Below, piece after piece: positions 401 to 45,393 of a stretch of DNA of 64,000 nt; position 1 is the first letter of the stretch; every line of letters begins with the position of its first letter. The notes under the pieces were generated by a model. The model saw only the letters and a list, made by a program, of their open reading frames with translations, did no database searches and was not told the DNA's origin. The stretch spans positions 101,806,001-101,870,000 of the forward strand of contig NC_086107.1 of the NCBI RefSeq assembly GCF_963921235.1. The letters run 5' to 3'. Both the position numbers and the translations under genes were made by a program. Source of the stretch: Mobula hypostoma. Its lineage: Eukaryota.

Positions 401-2410
401 ACCATCCTACCACTCTCTGTTTTAAAAAAAAACTTGTTTTGCATATCTCCTTTAAACTTTCTCCCTCTCATGTTAATTATATATCACCTTGTATTTAATA
501 TTTGCTTCCCAGTGTTTGCCAAGATCGTGCTGGAATATAACAATTCTTTGCAAGCTGTTCTTAGCAGATCCAATTTTAACCTCAGAGACAGACTCTGACT
601 GTCTGCCCCATCTATGCCTCACATAATTTTCTATCAGGTCTCCTCTAATCTAGGCAAGGAACCTCTTCTGTGGTTTCAGTGGCTCCAGGTCCTTGCTGTA
701 ATGGGGCAACCTGAACTGCATACAATTATGTAAGTGCAGCCTAACTGAAGTTTTATATATACTTTTGTATTCATTGCCTCAACCAATAAAGGCAAGCATA
801 CTGTATGCCTTCTTGACCAACCTATCTACTTGTGTGGCCACTTTCAGTGAATTATGGACTTGGACCCAGGATCCCTCTGCACATCAAAGCTGTTAAGGGT
901 TCTGCCATTAACTATATAATTTTCCCTTCCAAAGTGAACCAGCTCACACTTGCTCAGATTAAGTTCCATCTGCTGTTTATATGCCTATAACTGATGTATA
1001 ATCCTGCTGTACCCTTTGAAATCCCTTTACTCTGTCCACAATTCCGCCAATCTATGTGTCAACCCATGCATCTACATTTTCATCCAAATAATTTATATAC
1101 ATCACAAACAAGAGGCCTTAAGACCAATCCCTATGGAACACCACTGGTCACAGCCATCCAACTAGAACATTGCAGGGCACTGCTGTAGCACAGCATTAGC
1201 ACAATGCTATTACAGCTTTGTGGGGGGGTAGGGGGTAGAGTTCAATTCTGGCATAGTCGGTAAGGAGTTTGTGCATTCTCTCCATCACCGTGTTGGTCTC
1301 TTCTGGGTGCTTCAGTTTCCTCCTGTAGTCTAAAGTACAGGTTAGCCCGAAAGAACCTGTTCCACACCGTATCTGTAAATAAAATAAATAAACAATACCC
1401 TTCCACCCTCAGCATCTATGGGCAAGCAAATTCTGAATCCAAACTAGCAATTTACTGCCAATCCAATGCATGATACTCATATGGTTCTGCCTACCATAAG
1501 GGACCTTGTCAAGTGTCTTACTGAGGTCCATGTTGGCGTTATCTACTGCCCTACGCATTCATCGCCTCCTCAAAAACTGAATCAGATGTGTAAGACCTGA
1601 CCTGCCATGCACAAAGCTATGCTCACTGGTACAATTCCCAAATCCTGTTTTCCAAATGCTTTTAAGTCCTTTCTCAAGAAATTGTCTCCAATGGCTTCCC
1701 TATGATGGAAGTAGGGCTCACAGGCCTATAATTTCTTAGATTATCCCTATTTTCCTTCCTGAACAAAGGAACAACAACATTGGCTACTCTCCAGTTGTCC
1801 AGTACCTCACTTGGTTCTAACAAGGATACAAAAGTCTTTGTCAACATTCCAGCAATTTACTCTCTTGCCTCTTTCAATAACCTGTGATTTATCTAGTTGG
1901 GGTCTGAGGGTTTATCCACCTTAATGCTCTTCAAAAGATGAAGCAGCACTTCCTTCTCGATCTTACAATTCCCCACACTGCTCTCACTATCCTCTATGTA
2001 CTTTTTTTTAAGGAATACTAACTCAAAGTACTCATTTAGTACCTCACCCACATCTCCTGACTCTATCCTTTGTCCTACAGTTTCTTTGGTTATCCTCTTG
2101 TTTTAAATGTAAGTATAAAATGCCTTGGGATTCTCTCTAATACTACATGCCAAGGACATTTCATGGCCCCTTTTGGCCACCTTAATTCCCTGCTGGAGCA
2201 CTTTCCTGCTATCTTTATATCCCTCAAGGGACCTGTCCAATTTTAGCTTCCTCAACCTTACAAATGCTTCCTTTTTCTTTTTAACTAAATTCATTACTTT
2301 TCTCATCATCCAGTTTCAGTTACCTTGCCATCGTTGTCCTCCCTCCTACTGGAGCATACTTGTCAAGAGCACTGATCAGCTGGTCTTTGAATAACTCCCA
2401 CTTTCGGATG
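400..2410 (-). mobile_element. CR1 LINE fragment (3' region, RT and linker), decayed, split by a V-SINE
   Basis: Antisense of GVP.G.VL near 1115-1150. ORF 2103-2309(-) ends in ENPKAFYTYI, a CR1 linker motif. Confidence 0.8.
1171..1390 (+). mobile_element. tRNA-derived V-SINE (HE1-like)
   Basis: B-box-like GTTCAATTC, V-domain-like GGGTGCTTCAGTTTCCTCCTGTAGTCTAAAG and an (AAAT)n tail. AACA on both sides; the CR1 host resumes afterwards. Confidence 0.75.
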
Positions 2411-2477
2411 GAAACTCAAAGCAACATATCTTAAGCTCCTCCAGTTAAATGCTGTAACATTGTTGTGAAGCACTTTC

Positions 2478-2682
2478 CTTTAAGAGAACTGGAATTCTTT
2501 CTGGTGTCTTAGTTAACATTTATCTTTCAACAAATGTCACCAAAACTGGTGACCTGATGATTGCTATTTGTGGGATATAGATAGTACAAATGGCTACACA
2601 GAATGATTGTAATAATGCTTCATTGGTTAATAATCTGTGCCAGGATGTGTTCAGGTTGTAAAAAAAGTGCTATGTAAATGGT
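2478..2682 (+). mobile_element. Old Deu-domain SINE remnant (SacSINE1/AmnSINE1-like)
   Basis: GGTGTCTTAGTTAACATTTATC...TTGCTATTTGTGGGA...CTTCATTGG...GTGCTATGTAAATG follows the Deu domain and tail as I recall them. Heavily diverged. Confidence 0.55.
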
Positions 2683-3179
2683 GACTCTCCATGTTTTGCC
2701 AGGTTTTTTTGTTAGTGCATCTGGAGCGAGCCAGTGAAACAGCTTTTGGAGTTAATTATTGGTGTGCAATTGTTGGGTGATGGGGCTGTTGTTGGTCGCT
2801 GACTGCTGCTGATAGTGGGGCTTTTGTGAAATATTAAATCAATATATATTTATTTTCAATTTTCTTGAATTTTTTTTAGTTGATAGGTAGGTGTAAAAAT
2901 GCATTTTAACCACATGAAGCAGATCATATGATGAAACCTCAAGGAATGTGTTCAATACGATTTTTGGTGGGGAAAGGCTGAGATAGCTGCCAAACACCAA
3001 TATTCAGTCATTCTGGAAAAACAGTTTTCTACAATTAATGTTCTTCAGTCTGGAAAGGCCTCTAGTCCATTACCGATTACAAAAAGAATGCATCCCTACC
3101 CCAATGATCACTTCCTTCCAAACGAATAAATGAGAGGTCTTTGATTCACAGATTACCATTAAACCCCCCCCCCCCCGCA

Positions 3180-4556
3180 GTGCCCATTCAGCCAGACCAT
3201 CACTAATGCCTCACACTCTTCATCAAAGAAGATGAGGTGAGAAAGCTGTTCAGGAAGCAAAATATCCCAAGGATGCGCTTGGAAGACGAGTGCGCCTTCA
3301 TGGTTGTGGGATTTCGTAGCTCTGGTGCCCCTGACTGAAGTGTCGCGGGAGAACATGGAACATTGGGAGTTGCGCCTTATTGGTGCCAACTCTCTGGGCA
3401 CAGTGCTTAGAAAAAGCAATGCAACTGATTTACAATGTTATGTCTCCCCTCTCACTGTGAAACAGGGACACCTCTTTTTCCCTTATTAGGGAGACAGGGA
3501 GCTTGTGGTATGTCGAATTACCGGATGAATGAGTAGTTTTTGGGGTACTGCAAGTCTGTGTCTTTATTGATGCTTTGCTGCACGCTTGAGTGCTCAGTGG
3601 AGGGTGCTGATGCCTTTTTTGCTGGTGGGGGTGGTGGAGGGGTTTTGGGATTCTAACTTTTTAACTGTCATTCATTCTTTGGGGCACTCCTAGATGTCTG
3701 CAAAGAAAAAGAACTTCGGGATCTATATTGTATACATTTTTCTGACATTAAATATACCTGTTGAAATATCAAGAAGGCTGCAGCACCTGTTTGTCTCTCT
3801 CCTTTGCCACCTTTAAAAATTGTGCAGTGTTCCAGCATGTTTCAAGAAATCTGTTATTATCCCAGTTCCCAGAAAAATCAAAGATCCATGCACTCAATGA
3901 CTACAGGCCAGTTGCACTCACATCAGTCACAATGAAGGCTTTTGAAAGGTTGGTTAAGTTATTTCTCAAATCCATAACTCAAAATTTTCTTGAGTCATTG
4001 CAATCTGCTTACAGAGCCAATAGATCTGTTGATGATGTAATTAACATCAGTTTGGACTTCATGCCACAGCATCTCGAGTCTGCTGGTACATTTGTTAGGA
4101 TTTTCTTTGTTGATTTCAGTTCGGCCTACAATATCATCATCCCTGAGCTTCTGCAAGAAAAACTACCATAACTTAACATACCAGCTCCCATGTGCAGATG
4201 GATCACAAAGTTTCTCTCTGACAGGAGGCAGTATGTGAGACCAGGTAAGCACGTCCCACATTCTGCTCAGTTAGGGGTGTGTTCTCTCTCCTCTCCATTT
4301 TTCTCTATACACCACTGACTGCATCACCAGATCACCGCCATACTAGTGCTCCCTTCTGTAAAGTGCTATAGCACTACTAAAATATAAACTTCATGCCATC
4401 TTAAAAGTTTCTTCCACCAGGCAGTTAATCTGATCATTCTAGTTAGCCCCTCCCCCATCACCCCAACCCCTCTCTATTACTTCAATCACTGAAAAGCTGT
4501 GTAAGCATTTTTTATAAGGTTGTAAGTACATGCTGGTATTTATGCATAGTTTATTC
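3180..4556 (+). mobile_element. Rex1-clade LINE, 5'-truncated and internally deleted
   Basis: IKEDEVRKLFRKQN near 3220-3260. ORF 3761-4171 has LNDYRPVALTSVTMKAFERLV, LQSAYRANRSVDD and FVDFSSAYN. C-terminal LKSFFHQAV near 4400. Confidence 0.85.
3267..3763 (+). mobile_element. Non-coding retroposon inserted in Rex1, 7-bp TSD
   Basis: AAATATC at 3260-3266 and 3764-3770. Rex1-like coding sequence on both sides; LINE-like AT-rich tail (TGACATTAAA). Confidence 0.7.
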
Positions 4557-17270: not shown

Positions 17271-18160
17271 ACCTACTACTGATAACCAGCTCACTGGCTT
17301 ATAATTTCCAGGCCTATTCTTCAAATCTTTCTTTAAAAATGTAACAACATTGGCTATCCGGCACCTCATCCATGGCTAAGGACATTTTCGATATTTGTAC
17401 TAGGGTCCCTGCAGTTTCTGCACCAGCCTCCCACCATGTCTGAGGGAACACTTTGTCAGGCCCTGGGGATTTATGCATCCTAATTTGTCTCAGGATAGCA
17501 AGCATCTTCTCCTCTGTAATCCAGTTATGGTCCACGCCCTCACTGCTGTTTTGCTTCCATTCTGTAGACTCTTGTGTCCATCTCCCGAGTAAATACAGAT
17601 CCATAGATGACCACATTGATCTTCAAGAGGACAAATTTGGTCCCTTACTATCCTTTTGCTCAACATATCTGTAGAAGCCCTTGGGGTTCTCCTTCACCTT
17701 GTCTGCCAGAGCAACCTTCTTTTAGCCCTTCTGTCTTCTCTCTTAAGTATTCTCTTGTATCCCTTATACTCGTCAAATACCACATTTCTTCTTTGCTGTC
17801 TATACTTGCTATGCACCTCCTTCTTCTTAACAAGACTTCAATAGTTCTCAAAAACCATTGTTCCCTGATCCTGTTCTGACAGAAACATATAAACTCGGTA
17901 CTCTCAAAATTTCACTTTGCCAGAAAACAATCTATACCAGTCTATACTTGCCAGATCCTTTCTGATGCCACCAAAATTGGCCTTTCTCCAATTTAGAATC
18001 TCAACCCAGTAACCAGACCTAGTCTTCTCCATAATTATCTTGAACTAAGGAATGTGATCATTAGATCCAATGTGTTCCTCTACTCATCTGCCATACCTTG
18101 TTCCCTAATAGGAGATCCTGTATTGCACTATCTTTATTTAGGACCTCTATGTATTGATGA

Positions 18161-21100
18161 TTTTACTTCTTGTGTCACACATATCCAATATCTTGTTAGT
18201 GACCCATGGTTTAGACTTGCGGCGGCTTTTCCCCAGAATCTTGCTTGCTGTTTCCTTCATCACTGTGTTAAAGTTATTTGTGGTGGTCTCCAGGTCTTCA
18301 TCAAGGAGGAGTATTGGTGCAAACTCCTCCCCCCCCCCCAATTACTGCCTGAAATTCTTCAAAGATGGCGGGGTCTTTCAGTTTTTCAAGGTAGAATCTC
18401 AGCCAGCTGTTTTTCGGCTTGTTGATTTTTCTCAAGCGCACTCTGATGTTCATCATGACAAGGTCATGGTCACTGCCCACGTCTGCTCCTGGGAATGTTC
18501 TGGTCTTCAGTCTGTTCACACCAGATTTGTGCCATCTTTGCACCAGGATGTAGTCAATCTCATGATGTTGACCATTGGGGGCATGCCAGGCCCATCTTCG
18601 GGATGCTTTGTGCTCTCCAAGAGTGTTTGACAGCACTATGTTGTTATAACTGGCAAATTCCAGCAGGCGTAGTCCCCTCTCATTGGAGGTGTCATTGCAT
18701 GAGGTGCCGATCAGATCTCCCCAATCATCTTGTGCGTCTCTGCCCACCTTGGCATTCCAGTCACCCTGAATGATCAAAATATCTTTTTTGTCCACCTTGT
18801 CGATGGCGTCTTGTAGTTTCTTATAGAATTCTTCAATGTGTTCATTGTTGTAGTCTGTTGTTGGGGCGTAGACTTGTGCCACTGTGATGTTGAATGGCTT
18901 TACTCATAGGCGGATGGTATTGAGCCTGCTTGACACTGGTTGACATTCTAGGACAGCGTTCTTGATGGATTTGTTGACTAGGAACCCTACGTCATTTTCA
19001 TGTCTGTTCTTTTCTCCACTGTAATAGAGTACATGTCCTTCCTCAGTATGCACTTCTCCAGCGTTCTTCCATCTGGCCTCACAGAGCCCGAGGAAGTGCC
19101 AGTTGTATCTTTCCATCTCATGCGTGAGTTCCTTAAGTTTCCCTGCTTAGTTCAGCGTTCTTACATTCCATGTGGCAATTGTGATGTTCTCTCTGCCATG
19201 GATCTTCTGTGTCGAATCACCACTAGCACATTTATCACGTCCACCCTGGTGTGAGACAGATAGCGTTGTCATTGGTAACCCGGGCTGTGACTGATCCTGT
19301 ATGAAGTTGCTTTTTGGTGTGCTCATCATGCTGCGTGTCTTGGGCATCTGAAATCTGAAGCCCATTCCTCTCCAGGTTAAACCACAGCCGATTTCCTCCA
19401 ACTAGGTGGCTTGCCTTGGTCATGAACATGTGGCCGTTATACTTCATCTATGGAAGTCATTCACCCAGTGGTGCCATGTTAACACCACCCCCTCACGTGG
19501 TTTAGCCTGCCAGCTGAAGCGGTTTACCAGGGTATGGCACTTGCAGCCAACACCTGAGAGATTTAGGAGATGGATGAGTACCGGTGATGCCCGTCCACCC
19601 TGTCTGGTAAGGAGCAGCATGCCAGACATCAAAGGTATTACCTCTATCCAGAGCCCCCTATACCCCAGCAGAGGGAAGAACAGAATCCAGGAAAACCAAC
19701 AAGGATATCAGGAGGGAAATGAAGGAAACAAAGCAAAGATGGATAGCGGAACAATGTGCAGACATTGAAGACAGCCTCTCCAACAACACAAAGAAGACAT
19801 TCCAACTGTTGAAAGATCTTACCAAAGAAAAATAAGCCAAAGTAAACACCATCCAAGACAAAAATGACAAAAGTCTCACAGAAGAAAAGGAAATAATGGA
19901 AAGATGGACAGAGTACCGTTCAGAACTGTGCAACTACCAGAGCAAAGGGGATCCAAGCGTACTGAATGTACAGGAATCTTCCAGTGAGGATGACTATCTA
20001 ATCATGTGTGAAGAAGTTGAAGCCGCAATACGATCACTGAAGTGCAGGAAGTCAGCAGGAGTTGACAACATCCCTGCTGAACTGCTGAAGCATGGAGGAC
20101 AGGCCACGATAGACATGCTTACCACCATCTGCAATAAGATCTGGCAGACAGATGAATGGCTGACACCTTGGACTCAGAGTCGCTGATCATTGTGCTTCCC
20201 AAGAATGGCAATCTCCAACTTTGCCAGAATTACCTTACCATCAGTTTGATCAGCCATGTAAGCAAGGTAATGCTCAGAATCATCTTGAACAGACTGAGAT
20301 CTCAGGCAGAAGACATCATTGCTGAGGAACAAGCAGGCTTCTATAAGGGCAGAAGCACCACTGAGCAGATTTTCAACCTCCGCGCCCTCTGTGAGAAACA
20401 CCTTCAGCACCAGAGAGAGTTCTACCATGTCTTCATAGACTTCAAGAAGGCGTTTGACAGAGTCTGGCATGATGCCTTATGGGCCACCATGAAGAAATTC
20501 AACATGGGGCAGAAGCTGATTCATACAATCCATTGGCTTTATGCCAAGGCAACCAGTGCAGTACTCACTCAGAGCACAATTGGGGAGTGGTTCCATACCT
20601 CTGTAGGAGTTCATCAGGGCTGCCTCCTCTCCCCCACTCTCTTCAATGTCTTCCTGGAACGAATCATGAGTGTTACCCTTGAAGATCATGTGGGCACAGT
20701 CAGCATCGGAGGGAGGAACATCACAAACCTAAGATTTTGCTGACGACATTGATGGACTTGCAGGAAAAGACAAACTGGCCAACTTGGTCAGCCATCTTGA
20801 CAGAGCTTCCACAAAGTCTGGAATGGAAATAAGTGCCGAGAAAACCAAGCTCATGGCAAATGCCAATGGTGCCATCACAACAGACATTTCAGTCCATGGT
20901 CAGAAACTTGAGAAAGTGCAGCAGTTCAAATACCTGGGGGCAATCATCAGTGATGAAGGATCAAGACCAGGATTCCTGGCAAGAATCGCACAGACAATGA
21001 CTGCACTATCCAAACTCAAGACAATATGGAGGGACAGCAACATCACCATGAAGTACAAGATCAGACTCCTGCGTGCATTGGTATTCTCCATCTTCCTGTA

Positions 21101-21541
21101 CGCATGCGAGACATGGCCCATCATAGCAGAGCTACAGAGGAAGAGACAGGCATGGGAAATGAGATGCTATTGCATCATCTTGGGCATCTCATACTTGGAC
21201 CACATCACAAACGAGCAGGTCCGCAAGACCATCCAACACCACATTGGCCCTCATGAAGACCTTCTCACAACAGTGAAGAAAAGAAAACTGAGATGGTACG
21301 GCCATGTAACAAGATCCAGTGGCCTTGCAAAGACCGTTCTACAAGGAACTGTGGAGGGGAAAAGAAGGAGAGGTAGACAGAGGAAAAGATAGACGGACAA
21401 CATTAAAAAATGGACAGGGAAAACATTTGTGGTGACCCATGCTCTGGCACACAACCGCGACAGATGGAACAGACTGGTGAAAATCTTGTCATGACGCCGC
21501 CCCGACGACTCCACCAGGAGTTAAGGGTGCAAGGCAAGGCT
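18161..21541 (+). mobile_element. RTE-clade LINE, essentially full length, with inverted 5' half
   Basis: Minus strand 18161-19666: 5' UTR and APE (ATWNVRTL, QVYAPT, GDWNAKVG, GSDH). Plus strand 19667-21541: linker, RT (FIDFKKAFDRV, QGCLLSPTLFN, F-ADD), LRWYGHVTR, GKRRRGRQRKR, (CAAGG)n tail. TSD TATTGATGA 18152-18160 and TATTAATGA 21542-21550. Confidence 0.93.
19490..19666 (-). ncRNA. HDV-like self-cleaving ribozyme at the 5' end of the RTE element (degenerate copy)
   Basis: P1 GGGGUAU/AUACCCU with a G1-U wobble; P2 CUCUCAGGUGUU/ACCACGUGAGGG; P3 GGC/GCC; GG after P1; short P4; J4/2 GCUAA. All elements are in HDV order. Confidence 0.75.
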
Positions 21542-22904
21542 TATTAATGAAGGAAACTTTGTTGAACACGTCGGACAAACTCTATCGCATCTTGCCCTTC
21601 TATAATATGGGAGTCCCAGTCAATATGTAGAAATTTAAAATCGCCTACTATCGCAGCCTTATGTTTCTTGCAACTGTCTGTGATCCCTCTACAAATTTGT
21701 TACTTGAAATCCTGCTGACTATTGGGTGGTCTGTAATATATAATTCATGATGCTTACTTCCCAAAAATATGTCTCACTGCAAAAGTAATTGCAAGTGGAG
21801 CTGAAGTTGAAAGTTTGAGTCAGGTGAAAGAGAAGGGGAATTATTCCTACTATCTCATAAAATTTGCAATGTGATGCACGACAGAATTCAAGTAATCAAA
21901 GAAGCACCTGCAGTTAACCATCAGCGATTAATTTAGCTATTTGTTTACCACATCCATAGCTACAAGTTATGATCCTAATAACTTCAGCACATTAAAACCA
22001 GAGGAAAACCTGCTCCTTCTGTGCTTCTGCAAGCCAGAATGAGCTAAATTGAATTCCTTGTTAGGTAGTGGAGGAAGGACTAGATAAGACATGGAGTTCC
22101 TGAGAGTGGTCTATATATACCTATCTTGCCAATTCTATAAACTCACATTTCTGAAGCAGCAGCACATCTGTCCTGTAGGACATTTGAGAACAGACTAGTT
22201 GAGATTAATTCTGCCTTGAGAGCACCGGTCCATTCTGTACATCTTCTTATTTATGTAAGTTAGATTGCAAATCATAGTCAGAGTTGCAAAACAGCACTGC
22301 AAATTTGAAGAGAGCGTTTCTGACAGCAATGCTTCTGCCTGGCCACAATTTCAATGGAGGTGTCTACATTGTAGATTACAGAACTGAGCATTTCAGCACT
22401 TCCTACCTCTGCTTCACTGCCTTTAGTATTTTTTTTGCTGCCCCCTGGGATTTTGTATTTCAGGTTTGCTGAGCTTCTGATTTATATTCTCCAAAAACTG
22501 GCCTTGCACCTCGATTTGCTTCTTCTCACTGTTGTGAAACTCACTCTCAGCATACATCCAACTGAATGACTTTCCACTTAGTGTATTGCTGTGTGCACTG
22601 ACACCTACAATAGATGAGTGTAATGTGGTACTCCCAGGAAAATTCCTCTCTAACCTAGAGCTCTGTCTACTTTCTGTGAGTGTCCAAGAGGAAAGAAGAA
22701 AAGATGAATATTTAGAACTTAGAAAGTATCAATGTGTCCAAGAGGGAAATAACAAATTGGTTGATGTTAAAATTGTCTGAAGGTGACTGCTTTGTGGTAC
22801 TGAAAAACTGCTTTAGTCAGTCTACTTTGCTGTGGTTGAGAGTGTTGGAGGTACAGTATGTCCAATCTCCAAGGTTCCCCCTCTTTTGGAGTCATCTGTA
22901 GCAT

Positions 22905-24030
22905 CAGTTCATAGAACCATAAGAGTTATGTATTACAGAAACAACCCATTCTGCCCACCCCGTCTAAACTGACCTTTTTGCTTATCTACACTAATCCTAT
23001 TTGCCCACATTTGGTTTGTATATCCTTTCATGCCTTAAGTGTTTCTTAAGCGTAATTACTGCATCTAACTCCATCATCCCCTGTGGCAGAAACTGTGAAC
23101 ACAACTTTCCACTCAAATTCTCTTTTAAAACTCCTTCCTCACAATTTAAACCAATGTTCGCAATACAAGACTGCTCAAGCCCTGTCAGATTTTATGGGGA
23201 TCATGAGGGGACAGTCTTTTTCAAGTCCAGCCAGAAATTCTCAATTGTATTGAAGCCTGGACTCTGACTTGGCCACTCCAGGACATTAACTTTGTTGTTT
23301 CGAAGCCATCCCCGTGTAGTTTTGGCTTTATGCTTGGGGTCATTGTCTAGCTGGCAAACAAATTTTCTCCCAAGAGACTGCATCAGGTTTTCCTCCATGA
23401 TTTCCCTGTATTTTGCTGCATTCATTTTACCCTCTACCTTCACAAACCTTCCAGAGCCTGCTGCAGTGAAGCATCCCCACAGCATGATGCAGCGTGTCCT
23501 TTTATCACTACCCTCTGCTTCCTGTCAACAATTCAATATTGAATCCAATTATCTAGTGCGCTTAGGATCCCTTGTTCCTTAACCTTTTGGACCAGTCTAC
23601 CATGAGGGACTTTGTCAAATGCCTTACTGAAATCCACATAGAACACATCTACCTCCCTGCCTTTATTGTTCTTCTTAGTTACCACTCAAAAAACTAAATT
23701 AAGTTATTCAGGCAGGATTTCTATGCTGACAATTACTAATCAGCCTCAGCCTTTTCAAATGTACATAAATCCTGTCTCTTAGAGTTACTTGCCTCGAGTT
23801 ACCTAGCTTATCCCTGCAGCTTTTCTTAAATATAGGAAAAACACTTGCTATCTTCCAATGTTTTGGAACCTCACCTATGGCTAACAAAGATGCAGAAACC
23901 TCCACCTGGGTCTTCCTTGCTTCTTAGCAATCTGGGTTAGATCTCATTGGATTCTGAGGATTTATCAACACTTTTGAGTCCCATGATATCCAACACCATC
24001 CTCCTTAATACTGACCTGTTCCAGATTAAT
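22905..24030 (-). mobile_element. CR1 fragments, decayed
   Basis: 3' tail near 22910. ORF 23708-23905(-): GEVPKHWKIASVFPIFKK. Confidence 0.75.
23175..23492 (-). mobile_element. Internal Tc1 transposase fragment without TIRs, same family as 5361-7762
   Basis: MLWGCFTAAGSGRFVKVEGKMNAAKYREIMEENLMQS...DNDPKH...WPSQSPGFNTIENFW, closely matching 7108-7380. Confidence 0.9.
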
Positions 24031-36577: not shown

Positions 36578-39500
36578 TTCAGAATGAGGTTTAATATCAA
36601 AGTTCCAAGTAAAATTTTTACTATTAGAGTACATACGTGTCACCACATACAACCCTGAGATTCTTTTTTCTGCTAGCATACTTAACAAATCTATAGAACA
36701 GTAATACTAAACAAGATCAATGAACAACAAGCTGTGCAAATGCAAATATAAATAAATAGCAATAAATAACAAGTATGAAAGAGCATGAGATAACAGGAGT
36801 CCTTAAAGTGAGACCAACTATTGTGGGAACACCAGAAAGAGAATGTGTAGTTATTCCATTTTGTTCAAGAGCCTAATGGTTGAGGGGTAGTAACTGTTCT
36901 TGAACCTGGAGGTGTGAGTCCTGAGGTACTTGTACCTTCTACCTGATGACAGCAGCGAGGAAAGACCATGGCCTGGGTGGTGAGGATCTTTGATGATGCA
37001 TGTTGCTTTTCTACAACAACATTTCATGTAAATGTGCTCAATGGCTGGGGGGGGGTTTACCCATGATGTACTGGGCCGAATCCACTACCTTTTGTAGGAT
37101 TTTCCACTCAAAAACTTTGGTGTTTCTGTACCAGGCTGTAATGCAGCCAGTAAGCACACTTTCCATCCCACATCTATAGCAGTTACCCAAAGTTTTTGAT
37201 GACATGATGAATCTCCACAGACTCCAGAAGAAGTAGGACCGCTGTCGTGCTTTCTTTGCGATTATATTTATATGATGGGTCCAGGACAGATCCTCTGAGA
37301 TAGTGACACCCAGGAATTTAAAGTTACTGACCCTCTCCACCTCTGATCCTCCAATGAGTACTGGCTCATGAACCTCTAGTTTACCTCTCCTGAAGTCTAC
37401 AATCAGTTCCTTGGTCTTATCGACATTGAGTGAGAGGTTGTTGTTATTAAACCACTCAGCCAAATTTTCAGTCTCTGTCCTGTATGCTGATTCATCGCCA
37501 CCTTTGATACAGCCCACAATGGTGGTGTCATCAGCAAACCTGTATATGGTGCGTTGGAGCTCTACTTAGCCACACAGTCAAGCGAGTAGAGCAGCGGGGT
37601 AAACACACATTCCTGTAGTGCTCCTGAGATGTTTTCACCAATCTGAACTGACTGGGGTCTGCAAGTGAAGAAATCTAGGATTCAATTGCATATGGGGGTA
37701 TTGAGGCCCAGGTCTTGGAGTTTACTGACTAGCTTTGAGGGGATGATGATGTTAAATGCTGAGTTGTAATCAATAAAGAGCATCCTAATGTATGCATCTT
37801 TGCTATCCAGAAGTTCCAGGGTTGTGAGACAAGCCAATGAGATGGCATCTGCTGTAGACCTGTGTAATATCACTGGCATATGTCATGAAATTTATTAACT
37901 TTGCAGCACCAGTACAATGCAATACGTAATAGAAGAAAAACTATATAGATAGAATAGTTATATTAAATAAGTAGTGCAAAAATAGATCTAACAGAGTAGT
38001 GAGGTACTGATCGTGGGTTCAATGTCCATTCAGAAATCAATGGCAGAGGCAAACAAGATGTTCCAGAATTGTTGAATGTGTGCTTTCAGGCTTCTATATC
38101 TCCCTCCTGATGGCAGCAATGAGAACAAGGCATGATCTGGGTGATGAGGGTTTTTGTGATGGACGTTGCCTTTTTGAGGCATTGCTCCTTAAAAATGTCT
38201 TGTGCCTTTTTTGTAGCTGCGTTAAAATGTAGGGTCCAGCTTAGATGCTCAGAGATATTGACACCTAGGAACTTCAAACTGCTCACCCTTTCCACTTCTA
38301 ATCCCTTTGAGGACTGGTGTGTGTTCCCTCGTCATACCCTTTCTGAAGTCCACAATCGGTTCTTCGGTCTTACTGGCGATGAGTGCAAGATTGTTGCTGT
38401 GACATCACTTCACTAGCTGATATATCTCACTTGTGTACACCTCTTGTCACCATCCGTATTTCTGCCAATAGTTGTATTGTTAACAATTTGTATATTGCAT
38501 TTGAGCTGTGCCTAGCCACACAGTCATGGGTGTAAAGAGAGTAGAGCAGTTGGTTAAGCGTATATCCCTGAGGTGTGTCAGCAAGGTGGAGGTGTTATTT
38601 CCGATCTGCACAGGTTGTGGTCGTCTTGTTAAGAAGTCAAGTTCCAGTTGCAGAGGGAGATATAGAGGTCCAAGTTCTGGAGCTTGTCAATCAGAACTGT
38701 AGGAATTATTGTGTTAAATGCTGAGCTGTAGTCAATAAACAGCCTCCTGACATGGGTATTTCTATTGTCCAGGTGATCCAAGACTGCCAATGAGATTGCA
38801 TCCACCATAGACCTATTGTGCTGATAAGCAAATTGCAGTGGGACCAGGTCCTTGCTGAGACAGGAGTTAATTCTAGCCATAACCAACCTATCAAAGCACT
38901 TTATCACCATAGATGTGAGTGCAACTGGACGGTTGTCATTAAGGCAGCTCACCCTGCTCCTCTTAGGCACTGGTATAATTGTTGCCCTTTTGAAGCAAGT
39001 GAAAACTTATAACTGGCATAATGAGAGATTTGAAAATGTCTATGAACACACCTGCCAGTTGTCGGTGTGGGTTTTCAGAGCCCTACCAGGTACTTTGTCG
39101 GGGCCTGTCACCTTGCAAAGGTTCACCCTTTTGAACGACAGCCTGATGTTGGCCTCCAAGACAGGGATCACATGGTTACTGGGTGCTGCAGGGCTCCTCA
39201 TAGCTGTAGTTTTACTCTCCCTTTCAAAGTGAGCATAAAAGGCATTGAGCTCGTCTGGGAGTGAAGGATCACTGCCATTCATGGTGTTGAGGTTTGTTCT
39301 GAGGGAACTAATGGCTTGCAGACCTTACCAATGTTCATATGCATCTGATTCCACCTCCAACCTTGTTTGGAATTGTTCTTTTACTCTTGAGATGGCCCTC
39401 CACAAGCCATACCTGGTTTTCTTGTACAGACCTGGGTTGCCAGACTTGAATGCCATTGATCTAGTCCTCAGCAGACTACAAACCTCCTGGTTCATCCACA

Positions 39501-42619: not shown

Positions 42620-45393
42620 CAGTGAACATGAGATGGTGCACCTGAACCAGCAGGAGAGGCAGAATTCAAACCAGGCTGAAGTGCAGAAGGATGAGGCTCC
42701 TCTGCCTACCATCTTGTTAGTGAACGTATAGTCACTTGAAAATAAGATTGACGATAAAGGCAAGGCTGCTGTATCAGAAGCAGATGAGGCAGATCTCAGT
42801 TGTTTGTTTTATTGAGACTTGCTTAACAGCGAACATGCCAGATGCAGCTATCCAACCAGAAGCTTTTACGATTTTCGGAATGAATCAAACCTCCACTTCT
42901 GGTAAGGAAAGAGGTGGCAGTGTGTGTTTTTTATTCAATTCTCGTTGGTGCACAGACGTTGGGGTTATATTGACTTCTTGTTCCCCTGATTTAGAACGAT
43001 TAAATGTAGACCATTCTGTTTGCCTCGAGAGTTTACATACTGCTAGCAGCCGATCATAAGCAAGCACTCACAAAACTGTGCGATGCTGTGTGTAAACAAG
43101 AAACAGTTCATCCTGACGCATTTCAAACTATAGTTGGCAACCTTTACCAGGCCTGTTTGAAGAAAACCCTGCCCAGTTATGACTCAGTACGTAACCTGTT
43201 GCACCAGAGGTCCCAACACGGTAGACCACTGCTACACTATGATAAGGAATGCCTGTCGTTCCTTCTTCAGACCACATTTTGGAAAGTCTGATCATTTGGC
43301 TGTATTTCTGTGACCTGCATATAGACAGAGAGTAAAGAGCAAGGCTCCAGAGATAAAGACAACTTAGAGGTGGTCACAGGGGCCATGTTCAAGAACTCAT
43401 CTGAGGATCTGAGTGACTACACCAGGGTCGTTAAAGACTTTATTAAAATAGCTATGGATGAATGTGTTCGCACAAAATCATTTTCCCCAATCAGAAACCC
43501 TGGATGAACAATGAAATCCAGAACCTGATGACAGCCAGATCAGAGGCATTCAAGTCTGGAGTTCAAGAATGCTACAAGAGGTACAGGTATGATCTCCGGA
43601 AAACCATCTCTCAGGCGAACTGGAGATTCTGGACTAGACTGGAATCAACAAGGGATGCTCAACAGCTGTGGCAGGATTTGAATGCTGTAACCTCCTACAA
43701 AGCTAAATCTTGCAACATAGGGGACAGCAGAGCTTCGCTTCTAGATGAGCTCAATGCCTTCTATTACCGCTTTGACCATTGGAACGGGGGAAACCATAGC
43801 GCACCCCCATGTCTCCCGATGATCCTTTGGTCTCAGTATCTGAAGATGATTTGCGGGCTGCTTTCAAGAGCGTGAATCCAAAGAACTCATCCAGTCCAGA
43901 TGAGTACCTGGAAGAGTACTGAAGATGTGTGCCGACTAGCTGACTTGTGTATTCATGAATATCTTCAACCTCCCACTCTGGCAGTATATGGTACCCCACC
44001 TGATTCAGCCAGGCTTCAATCCTACCGGTGCCCAAGAAGAGCATGATAACCTGTCTAAATAACTTATTGCCCAGTGGCACTTGCATTCACAGTAATGAAG
44101 TGTTTTGAGAGGCTGGTGTTGAAGCACATCAACTCCTGTCTGAATGGTGACTTGAATCTGCTCCAATTCACCTACTGAAGCAACAGGTCTACAGCAGATG
44201 CTGTCTTGTTGGCTCTTCACACAACTCTGGAACTTCTGGATAGCAAAGGTGCATACATCAGGATGCTCTTTATCAATTACAGCTTGGCATTTAACACCAT
44301 CATCCCTCAAAACTAATCAGTAAACTCCAAGGCCTGAGCCTCAATACCACCTTATGCAATTGGATCCTAGATTTCCTCACTTGTAGATGCCAGTAAGCTC
44401 GCATTAGCAAAAACATCTCCTCCACAATCACCATCAGCTCAGGAGTACTGCAGAGATGTGTACTTAGCCCTCTGTTCTACTCGCTTTACACCTATAACTG
44501 TATGGCTAAGTGCAGTTCCAACACCATATGCAAGTTTGTTGACAATATCACTGTTGTGGGCTGTATCAAAGGGATGATGAATTAGCATACAGGAGGAGGG
44601 AGATTGAAATCTCTCACTCAACGTCGACAAGACCAAGGAACTGATTGTAGACTTCAGGAAAGGGAAACCAGAGGTTCATGAGCCAGTACTCATCGGAGGA
44701 TCAAAGGTGGAGAGGGTCAGTAACTTTAAATTCCTGGGTGTCGCTATGTCAGAGGACCCGTCCTCGACCCATCATAAATATTATTGTGAAGAAAGCATGA
44801 CAGCACCTCCACTTCCTCAGGAGTCTGCGGAGGTTCAGCATGTCATCAAAAACCTTGGCAAATTTCTGTAGATGGGTGGTGGAAAGTGTGCTTACTGACT
44901 GCATTACAGCCCGGTATGGGAACACCAATGCCTTTGAGAGAAAAATCCTACGAAAGGTAGCGGATTCGGCCCAGTACATCACGGGTAAAAACCCTCCCAA
45001 CTATTGAGCACATCTACATGAAACATTGCTGTAGAAAAGCAGCATCCATCATCAAAGATTGTCACCACCCAGGCCATGCTCTTTTCTCGCTGCTGCCAGC
45101 AGGTAGAAAGTACAGGTGACTCAAGACTCATACCACCAGGTTCAAGAACAGTTACTACCCCTAAACCATCAGGCTTTTGAACAAAATGGGATAGCTACAC
45201 TCATTTAAGGATTCTGTTATATTGTTATTACATACTCATTATTTATTGCTATGTATTTATATCTACATTTGCAGTTTACAGTTAATTCCTGATGTTTACA
45301 GTTACTGCTGTATAGATTTGCTATGTATGCCCATAGAAAAAGAAACTCAGTGTTGTATGTGGTAACATATATGTACTCTAAATTTCACTTTGA
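42620..45393 (+). mobile_element. Near full-length Rex1 LINE, decayed
   Basis: PLPTILLVNV.SLENK, CFIETCL, GKERGGSVCF, CSPDLE, NQKPWMN, DELNAFY, RT and 3' tail. Same subfamily as 36600-37864. Confidence 0.9.

Follow-up and report, generated by a model that had tools for sequence, protein, structure and literature searches.

For the long interspersed nuclear element (LINE) L1, a model of insertion by twin priming was reportedly put forward by Ostertag and Kazazian in 2001. Twin-primed L1 copies of mammals consist of opposite-strand fragments bounded by target-site duplications (TSDs), the 5' fragment being the inverted one; they show a small deletion or duplication at the inversion point and, in part of the events, microhomology with the target overhang, they are dead on arrival, and they make up roughly a tenth of insertions (PMC2837659, PMC2912911 and PMC4245944). 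The locus described here, taken together with the other inverted copies of its family, is like them in these respects. The locus is a 3380-nucleotide (nt) composite, made of two opposite-strand pieces of a single LINE family, at positions 18161-21540 of a 64,000-nt stretch of Mobula hypostoma DNA (contig NC_086107.1, positions 101,806,001 to 101,870,000), the whole of which is called the window below. The best explanation of the composite is that an RTE-type LINE was retrotransposed once and that twin priming resolved the event, a reading to which a probability of about 0.87 is assigned.

According to one proposal, 5' inversion depends on a 3' overhang of the top strand that is of sufficient length for pairing with the RNA, and an overhang of ~5 nt may be too short to prime (PMC4245944). 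The same paper gives a TSD peak of 10-12 base pairs for the RTE clade, and reports that in cultured cells 5' inversions arose only from human L1 in human cells, with a single Nimb-2_DR insert in DT40 cells as the exception.

Two opposite-strand halves within one target-site duplication

A first-pass annotation, made from the letters of the window, had described one TSD pair, with its right end at 21550, around a minus-strand half that runs from the 5' untranslated region (UTR) through the apurinic/apyrimidinic (AP) endonuclease and a plus-strand half that runs through the reverse transcriptase to a (CAAGG)n tail. This anatomy was recovered from the sequence itself, from Pfam and tblastn, and from BLAST against L031, a natural collinear copy of 3424 nt that served as the ruler (Table 1). 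The AP-endonuclease domain lies on the minus strand at 18301-18903 (Exo_endo_phos_2, E 2.3e-07), and RVT_1 was found on the plus strand at 20156-20743 (E 2.7e-25) and at 20733-21392. The intact homologue P0002, of 1012 amino acids (aa), carries Exo_endo_phos (aa 50-287) and RVT_1 (aa 571-820) in one protein, and its tblastn alignment changes strand in the window: aa 1-384 match the minus strand from 19329 to 18168, and ~aa 381-1012 match the plus strand from 19620 to 21521. The minus strand encodes the peptide ...PWVTNKILDMCDTRSK, and the plus strand encodes AEGRTESRKTNKDIRREMK...WIAEQC, both of which the annotation had quoted. The tail is separated from the right TSD copy by one T, at 21541.

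Table 1. Features of the composite insertion and of the host repeat in which it lies
Feature	Position in window	Strand	Evidence
Left flank: older interspersed host repeat	17761-18151	.	repeat search of genome, paralogues 69-79% identical
Left TSD copy TATTGATGA	18152-18160	+	sequence; host-repeat paralogues hold the 9-mer once, joined to both flanks
Inverted 5' segment, 1505 nt, = L031 positions 1-1529	18161-19665	-	BLAST vs L031, Pfam, tblastn
Content of inverted segment: 5' UTR, open reading frame (ORF) start, AP-endonuclease domain, linker to ...DMCDTRSK	5' UTR ~19330-19665; ORF start near 19329	-	
Internal junction: element position 1549 directly follows the complement of the first base of the element	19665-19666	.	
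Forward 3' segment, 1875 nt, = L031 positions 1549-3424	19666-21540	+	BLAST, Pfam, tblastn
Content of forward segment: linker, reverse transcriptase, C-terminal region, stop TAA, 16-nt 3' UTR, tail	stop TAA 21522-21524	+	
Tail (CAAGG)2C	21530-21540	+	sequence
Right TSD copy TATTAATGA	21542-21550	+	sequence, host-repeat paralogues
Right flank: same host repeat resumes	21551-21740	.	paralogue alignment

The element has a single ORF with an N-terminal AP endonuclease followed by the reverse transcriptase, as the Pfam domains indicate and as P0002, which spans both halves, confirms. Since this ORF starts ~336 nt from the 5' end of a 3.4-kilobase (kb) element, there is no room for an ORF1. The very short 3' UTR ends in a simple repeat, which in other copies takes the form (CAAGG)n, (GAAGG)n or (AAAGG)n. 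Frameshifts and stops break the ORF in both pieces, which marks the window copy as decayed, and to judge from its sequence it is an inert insertion with no sign of function.

Measured by BLAST, the minus strand of 18162-19667 corresponds to L031 positions 1529 to 1 at 88.6% identity, and the plus strand of 19666-21539 to positions 1549 to 3424 at 92.0%, so that 19 nt are missing between the outer end of the flipped piece (1529) and the forward start (1549). When the composite was searched against the window's own genome (3.48 gigabases (Gb), 200 contigs), other family copies proved to be collinear: the query's 3' part (1875 nt) and its 5' part (1505 nt) match adjacent stretches in them, on opposite query strands. 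In seven of nine collinear copies as aligned, a 19-nt stretch (TTAAAGAAAGATAAAAACA or close variants) separates the two parts; in the remaining two, where the alignment ends are trimmed, 24 and 21 nt lie between them. Across the gap, a collinear copy reads ...PWVTNKILDMCDTRRKLKKDKNTAKGRTEYRKINKEIRREMKEAKQRWIAEQC... in translation. The window therefore lacks ~6 codons that collinear copies possess, in agreement with the earlier statement that only a few codons had been lost between the halves.

The inner end of the flipped piece is the 5' terminus of the family, gggtatagggggctctggat..., which is intact at 19665 and has the same first base in 6/9 collinear copies, and the internal junction contains no filler and is ambiguous by at most 1 nt (C/G). 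These breakpoints bear on the possibility that a collinear full-length copy was inserted and that a subsequent rearrangement at the DNA level, through breakage and rejoining or through template switching in replication, inverted its first 1.5 kb with a loss of 19 nt. The end product of such a history would look identical; however, one breakpoint would have had to hit exactly the border between the TSD and the first base of the element, and inverted repeats are absent at the breakpoint flanks.

As a separate observation on the 5' terminus, an extra G stands just upstream of the 5' GGG in L031, L032, L033 and L045, that is, in four of the seven full-length copies that start with GGG. This G could be an untemplated or cap-derived base, or could be due to chance.

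Private changes, scored against the majority of eight collinear copies, amount to 3.4% of the 5' half (48 of 1394 positions) and to 3.0% of the 3' half (52 of 1748), and the 5'/3' ratio of mean distances is 1.13, with the eight collinear copies spanning 1.01-1.21. By these counts the two halves are equally diverged and of the same age; halves of different subfamily or age, which the annotation had named as evidence that would speak against its reading, were not seen. The junction was matched in 0/39 other scored copies, all matches breaking at query position 1506, and the window copy is therefore not a member of a propagated rearranged subfamily.

The same data bear on an origin from two molecules, either as independent or nested RTE insertions in opposite orientation or by priming of the top strand on a second RNA ('dual priming'). 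Material for such events would be at hand, as the family is abundant (1408-1489 first-look candidates per search) and nested LINE copies are common in the window. The minus-strand piece, however, has neither a 3' end nor a tail of its own, which are always present in insertions made by target-primed reverse transcription, and a single TSD pair was found, with no second pair around either half. Moreover, the two pieces are complementary to within 19 nt here and to within 52 nt of a 3.4-kb element in all nine inverted copies described below, a fit that unrelated molecules or positions would not be expected to show, and equal divergence is accompanied by a lack of diagnostic subfamily differences between the halves. 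An origin from two molecules is thus very improbable.

Contigs assembled from public sequencing runs provide a view of the junctions that is in part independent. A 179-nt contig of organism B, from one sample with the runs X4 and X6, extends over 18017-18195, shows three differences and bridges the left junction with 144 + 35 letters. The internal junction is crossed by contigs covering 19640-19736 (runs X1 and X2; 0 differences) and 19640-19778 (run X6; 2 differences), which have a single-copy depth of ~13-15 and carry both organism labels. It should be noted that the best-matching sample may be the source of the window's assembly; only the second organism label counts as independent. No contig among the run contigs covers the right junction (21540/21542), which is neutral either way. 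For runs of organisms C-F and for skin metagenomes the shares were 0.14-0.18, values that are probably due to multi-copy repeat words and from which nothing is concluded. The assembly might be suspected of holding a 1.5-kb block in the wrong orientation, given that repeats are prone to misassembly and that no single available read extends over the whole 3.4 kb. Against such an artefact stand the independent contig at the left junction and the single-copy-depth contigs, under two labels, at the internal one; in addition, an artefact would not delete exactly the 19 nt between the pieces while preserving the TSD, and the same architecture is found at eight other loci. An assembly error is scarcely credible under these circumstances.

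Recurrence of the 5' inversion in the family

The annotation had suggested that inverted and collinear copies be counted genome-wide. In tool-ranked samples, 8/82 other copies classified (~10%) are 5'-inverted, with other breakpoints and the same topology. Six of them were among the 39 copies scored in the composite search, one among the 18 copies new in a second ranked sample, none among the 13 new in a third, and one among the 12 fetched from a list ranked on the last 300 nt. Of the 39 loci on this last list, ranked on the 3' end alone, 20 were classified, with one inverted copy among them: the 12 fetched, six already included among the other copies and two placed by their coordinates. In the shared build, the inverted 5' piece abuts the left TSD and its outer end lies near the forward start in element coordinates. 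The offset of the second priming site from the forward start is -19 nt in the window and approximately -45 to -52, -12, 0, +8, +12, +19, +19 and +20 nt in the other copies. A TSD of their own, of 6-10 nt, is present in seven of the eight; the eighth is without its 3' end.

In four of the eight copies, the TSD continues into 2-5 element-matching bases (TTT, TG, GCCTG and CAA), the CAA being ambiguous with the tail repeat. The microhomology summed over seven scored copies is 10 nt, for which simulation gave a chance probability of 0.002 to 0.02. An apparent clustering of offsets at 19-20 nt was retained as a remark only; microhomology turns two of these values into ranges of 17-19 and 14-19.

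All nine inversions, the window's included, involve the 5' end region of the element; among the copies classified, no inversion was limited to its middle or 3' portion. If the inversions had followed insertion, the coincidence of a breakpoint abutting the TSD would be required in seven more copies. The presence of the arrangement in organism B shows only that it is old, and neither an empty site nor a collinear orthologue fixes its timing. Nevertheless, given that the breakpoint coincides with the 5' terminus and that the arrangement recurs in other copies, the inversion probably arose during insertion, and a later rearrangement is regarded as improbable.

Some further copies deserve mention in their own right. 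The target site of the inverted copy at G000:C9:186238276-186241619, AAGGAAGGA, resembles the element's tail repeat, which hints that first-strand priming can make use of pairing between a microsatellite tail and its target. Among the collinear copies, L029 (G000:C1:5146186-5149138) contains 22 nt of element sequence in duplicate, separated by ~110 nt of other DNA, and L006 (G000:C5:164226398-164229725) carries a 74-nt internal deletion; these are not inversions, and they may be template-switch or repair products. About 100 nt downstream of a full-length copy, two pieces of 49 nt from the very 3' end of the element face each other head to head, one on either strand (G000:C2:97297889-97298043; L036).

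Target site and proposed course of the insertion

The element lies within an older, very abundant interspersed repeat, for which 3803 first-look candidates were obtained and 40 were scored. Both flanks are contiguous in seven of eight paralogues of this host repeat, while L049 matched the left flank only. On L047 the two TSD copies fall on the same nine positions, and the paralogues show ...ctctatgtaCTGATTAaggaaac... as a single copy. From the contiguity of the paralogues and their single 9-mer it follows that the TSD is genuine and that the host repeat continues on the far side of the insertion. This part of the earlier description stood; the identification of the host repeat as CR1 was not confirmed, and Pfam found no LINE domain in 12 host ORF fragments. 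The clear TSDs of non-inverted family copies measure 8-14 nt, and the window's 9 nt are therefore typical. Joints that skip the element (e.g., 18118 to 21542) were considered as a possible empty allele and rejected, the 27-33 other letters between being those of host-repeat paralogues.

The TSDs themselves start with A in 12/14 clear non-inverted cases (loci L009-L064) and in six of the eight TSDs of inverted copies, a set that includes the window's, which begins with TA; T-rich runs lie ~10-20 nt upstream of several TSDs. In these features the target sites resemble the 'Tn-TA' insertion signature of RTE and Bov-B (PMC13295347).

Twin priming is favoured because a single TSD pair encloses both halves within a host repeat that is contiguous elsewhere; because the flipped piece is the 5' one, with its outer end 19 nt upstream of the forward start; because this piece ends at the exact family terminus, where a later inversion would need a breakpoint at the border between element and TSD; and because the halves are equally diverged, the junction is private, the topology recurs in copies with their own TSDs, and a contig of organism B spans the left junction. 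The annotation's view that RTE machinery had produced the arrangement in this way is thereby strengthened by the gap, the equal divergence, the private junction and the recurrence.

The element's endonuclease would first have nicked the bottom strand, immediately to the left of a target of 9 nt, (T)ATTGATGA, and the resulting 3' end would have primed reverse transcription at the (CAAGG)n tail of the RNA. The top strand would then have been cut 9 nt to the right while the first cDNA was still unfinished. The freed top-strand 3' end (...TATTGATGA-3') may have settled on that RNA near position 1530 and served as the primer of a second cDNA, which would have reached the very 5' end of the RNA, the first cDNA halting at 1549, 19 nt short of the second priming site. 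Joining of the two cDNA ends by host repair, with an overlap of 0-1 nt, would yield the observed order of TSD, antisense 1529 to 1, sense 1549 to 3424 with the tail, and TSD, with a loss of 19 nt of RNA, and the resulting copy would have been dead on arrival. In this scheme the arrangement of the pieces, the presence of just one TSD pair, the gap of 19 nt, the equal age of both halves and the return of such inversions in other family copies are observations, and the order of the nicks, the role of the top strand as primer and the joining step are what we infer from them.

Several points weigh against twin priming by an RTE element at this locus. The two TSD copies, TATTGATGA and TATTAATGA, are identical at 8/9 positions. 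Target and element share only 0-1 nt at the window's own second priming site, and the window alone thus gives no evidence of primer annealing. The annotation had proposed to look for complementarity of the TSD end to the RNA at 18161: three terminal primer bases do pair if G-U is allowed and base 18161 is counted as extra, the figure being 0-1 nt otherwise, and the best ungapped pairing of overhang and RNA at the site used (4/9 Watson-Crick, by hand) is no better than chance. The contigs that cross the internal junction hold only 26 letters on its left, where the bar was 31; the copy samples, ranked by the search tool, are biased to long copies and are not a census; and no orthologous empty site was found in public run contigs. 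Finally, the placement in the RTE clade, made on architecture and on weakly named relatives, is provisional.

Two other features of the window lie outside the insertion. An ORF fragment with a DDE_3 transposase domain (E 3.2e-14, Pfam) is found on the minus strand at 23201-23524, ~1.7 kb to the right of the insertion, and represents a DNA-transposon remnant, presumably Tc1/mariner-like. A large inverted repeat pair at 36845-37439 and 44608-45200, with arms of 427 and 174 nt that are 85-91% complementary and lie ~7 kb apart, with additional matching arms (I8, I9 and others) between them, may consist of two copies of one repeat in opposite orientation.

Comparison with known systems

Ichiyanagi and Okada are said to have analysed the 5' junctions of RTE elements in 2008, and their data may include a tabulation of RTE 5' inversions. 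In the literature searched, to which that study and the supplements did not belong, no description of 5' inversion or twin priming in RTE-clade elements was found. The available text of PMC13295347 contains none of the words 'inversion', 'inverted' and 'twin', that of PMC6007223 has 'twin priming' and 'inversion' nowhere but in a title in its reference list, and that of PMC4476161 mentions, for RTE, template-switch chimeras only. The mechanism as such is known, and its occurrence and recurrence in an RTE-type family are a modest extension.

Intact relatives of the element (P0002-P0070) are ~1010-1050 aa long and 50-62% identical, and many of them stand on ~3.3-kb contigs from metagenomes or run assemblies. 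Identity is 59% for a relative from a crab (Petrolisthes cinctipes) and, over part of the protein, 61% for a fusion protein with a turtle label. So patchy a distribution brings to mind the horizontal transfers that have been reported for RTE elements. The named relatives from squamates are a Podarcis protein and 'Craniofacial development protein 2 [Varanus komodoensis]', a name that we take to denote Bov-B-type sequence. The element differs from Bov-B in that these nearest named relatives of that presumed type are just 33-34% identical to it.

The likeness to RTE-clade LINEs (RTE and Bov-B; PMC13174262, PMC6007223 and PMC13295347) is otherwise extensive. It comprises the length of ~3.4 kb, the single ORF of ~1000 aa with the AP endonuclease ahead of the reverse transcriptase, the short 5' UTR, the very short 3' UTR, the simple-repeat tail, and TSDs of ~10 nt that mostly start with A. 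In contrast to L1, the element described here has one ORF and no ORF1, a 3' UTR of 16 nt, and a (CAAGG)n tail instead of poly(A). Its TSDs are 6-14 nt long, compared with ~15 nt for L1, its first strand is primed on a microsatellite tail, and its host is not a primate and has a genome of 3.48 Gb.

The chances appear to be even that twin priming is specific neither to L1 nor to mammals and is a regular side-path, taken in ~1/10 long insertions, of a 'stringent' single-ORF RTE-clade LINE with staggered cuts of ~9-12 nt, whose reverse transcriptase can use a short top-strand overhang, paired over 0-5 nt, to start at an internal, non-cognate RNA site. The offsets of -52 to +20 nt, three of which lie at +14 to +20 and one at -19, may be the footprint of two enzyme complexes that meet on one RNA. 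Twin priming would thereby be extended to LINEs of a clade in which the element's own 3' end is recognised and an ORF1 protein is lacking. A practical consequence is that repeat annotation would split flipped copies into two opposite-strand fragments, which would distort the counts of copies and of full-length elements.

The comparison with the cell-culture work is of particular relevance in this respect. No RTE element was assayed in PMC4245944 as far as its available text goes, and the evidence presented here consists of genomic fossils of an RTE family, whose TSDs of 8-14 nt and inversions fit the overhang-length proposal made there. RTE fossils that combine TSDs of this length with recurrent 5' inversions thus constitute a natural test, the outcome of which is in accordance with that proposal.

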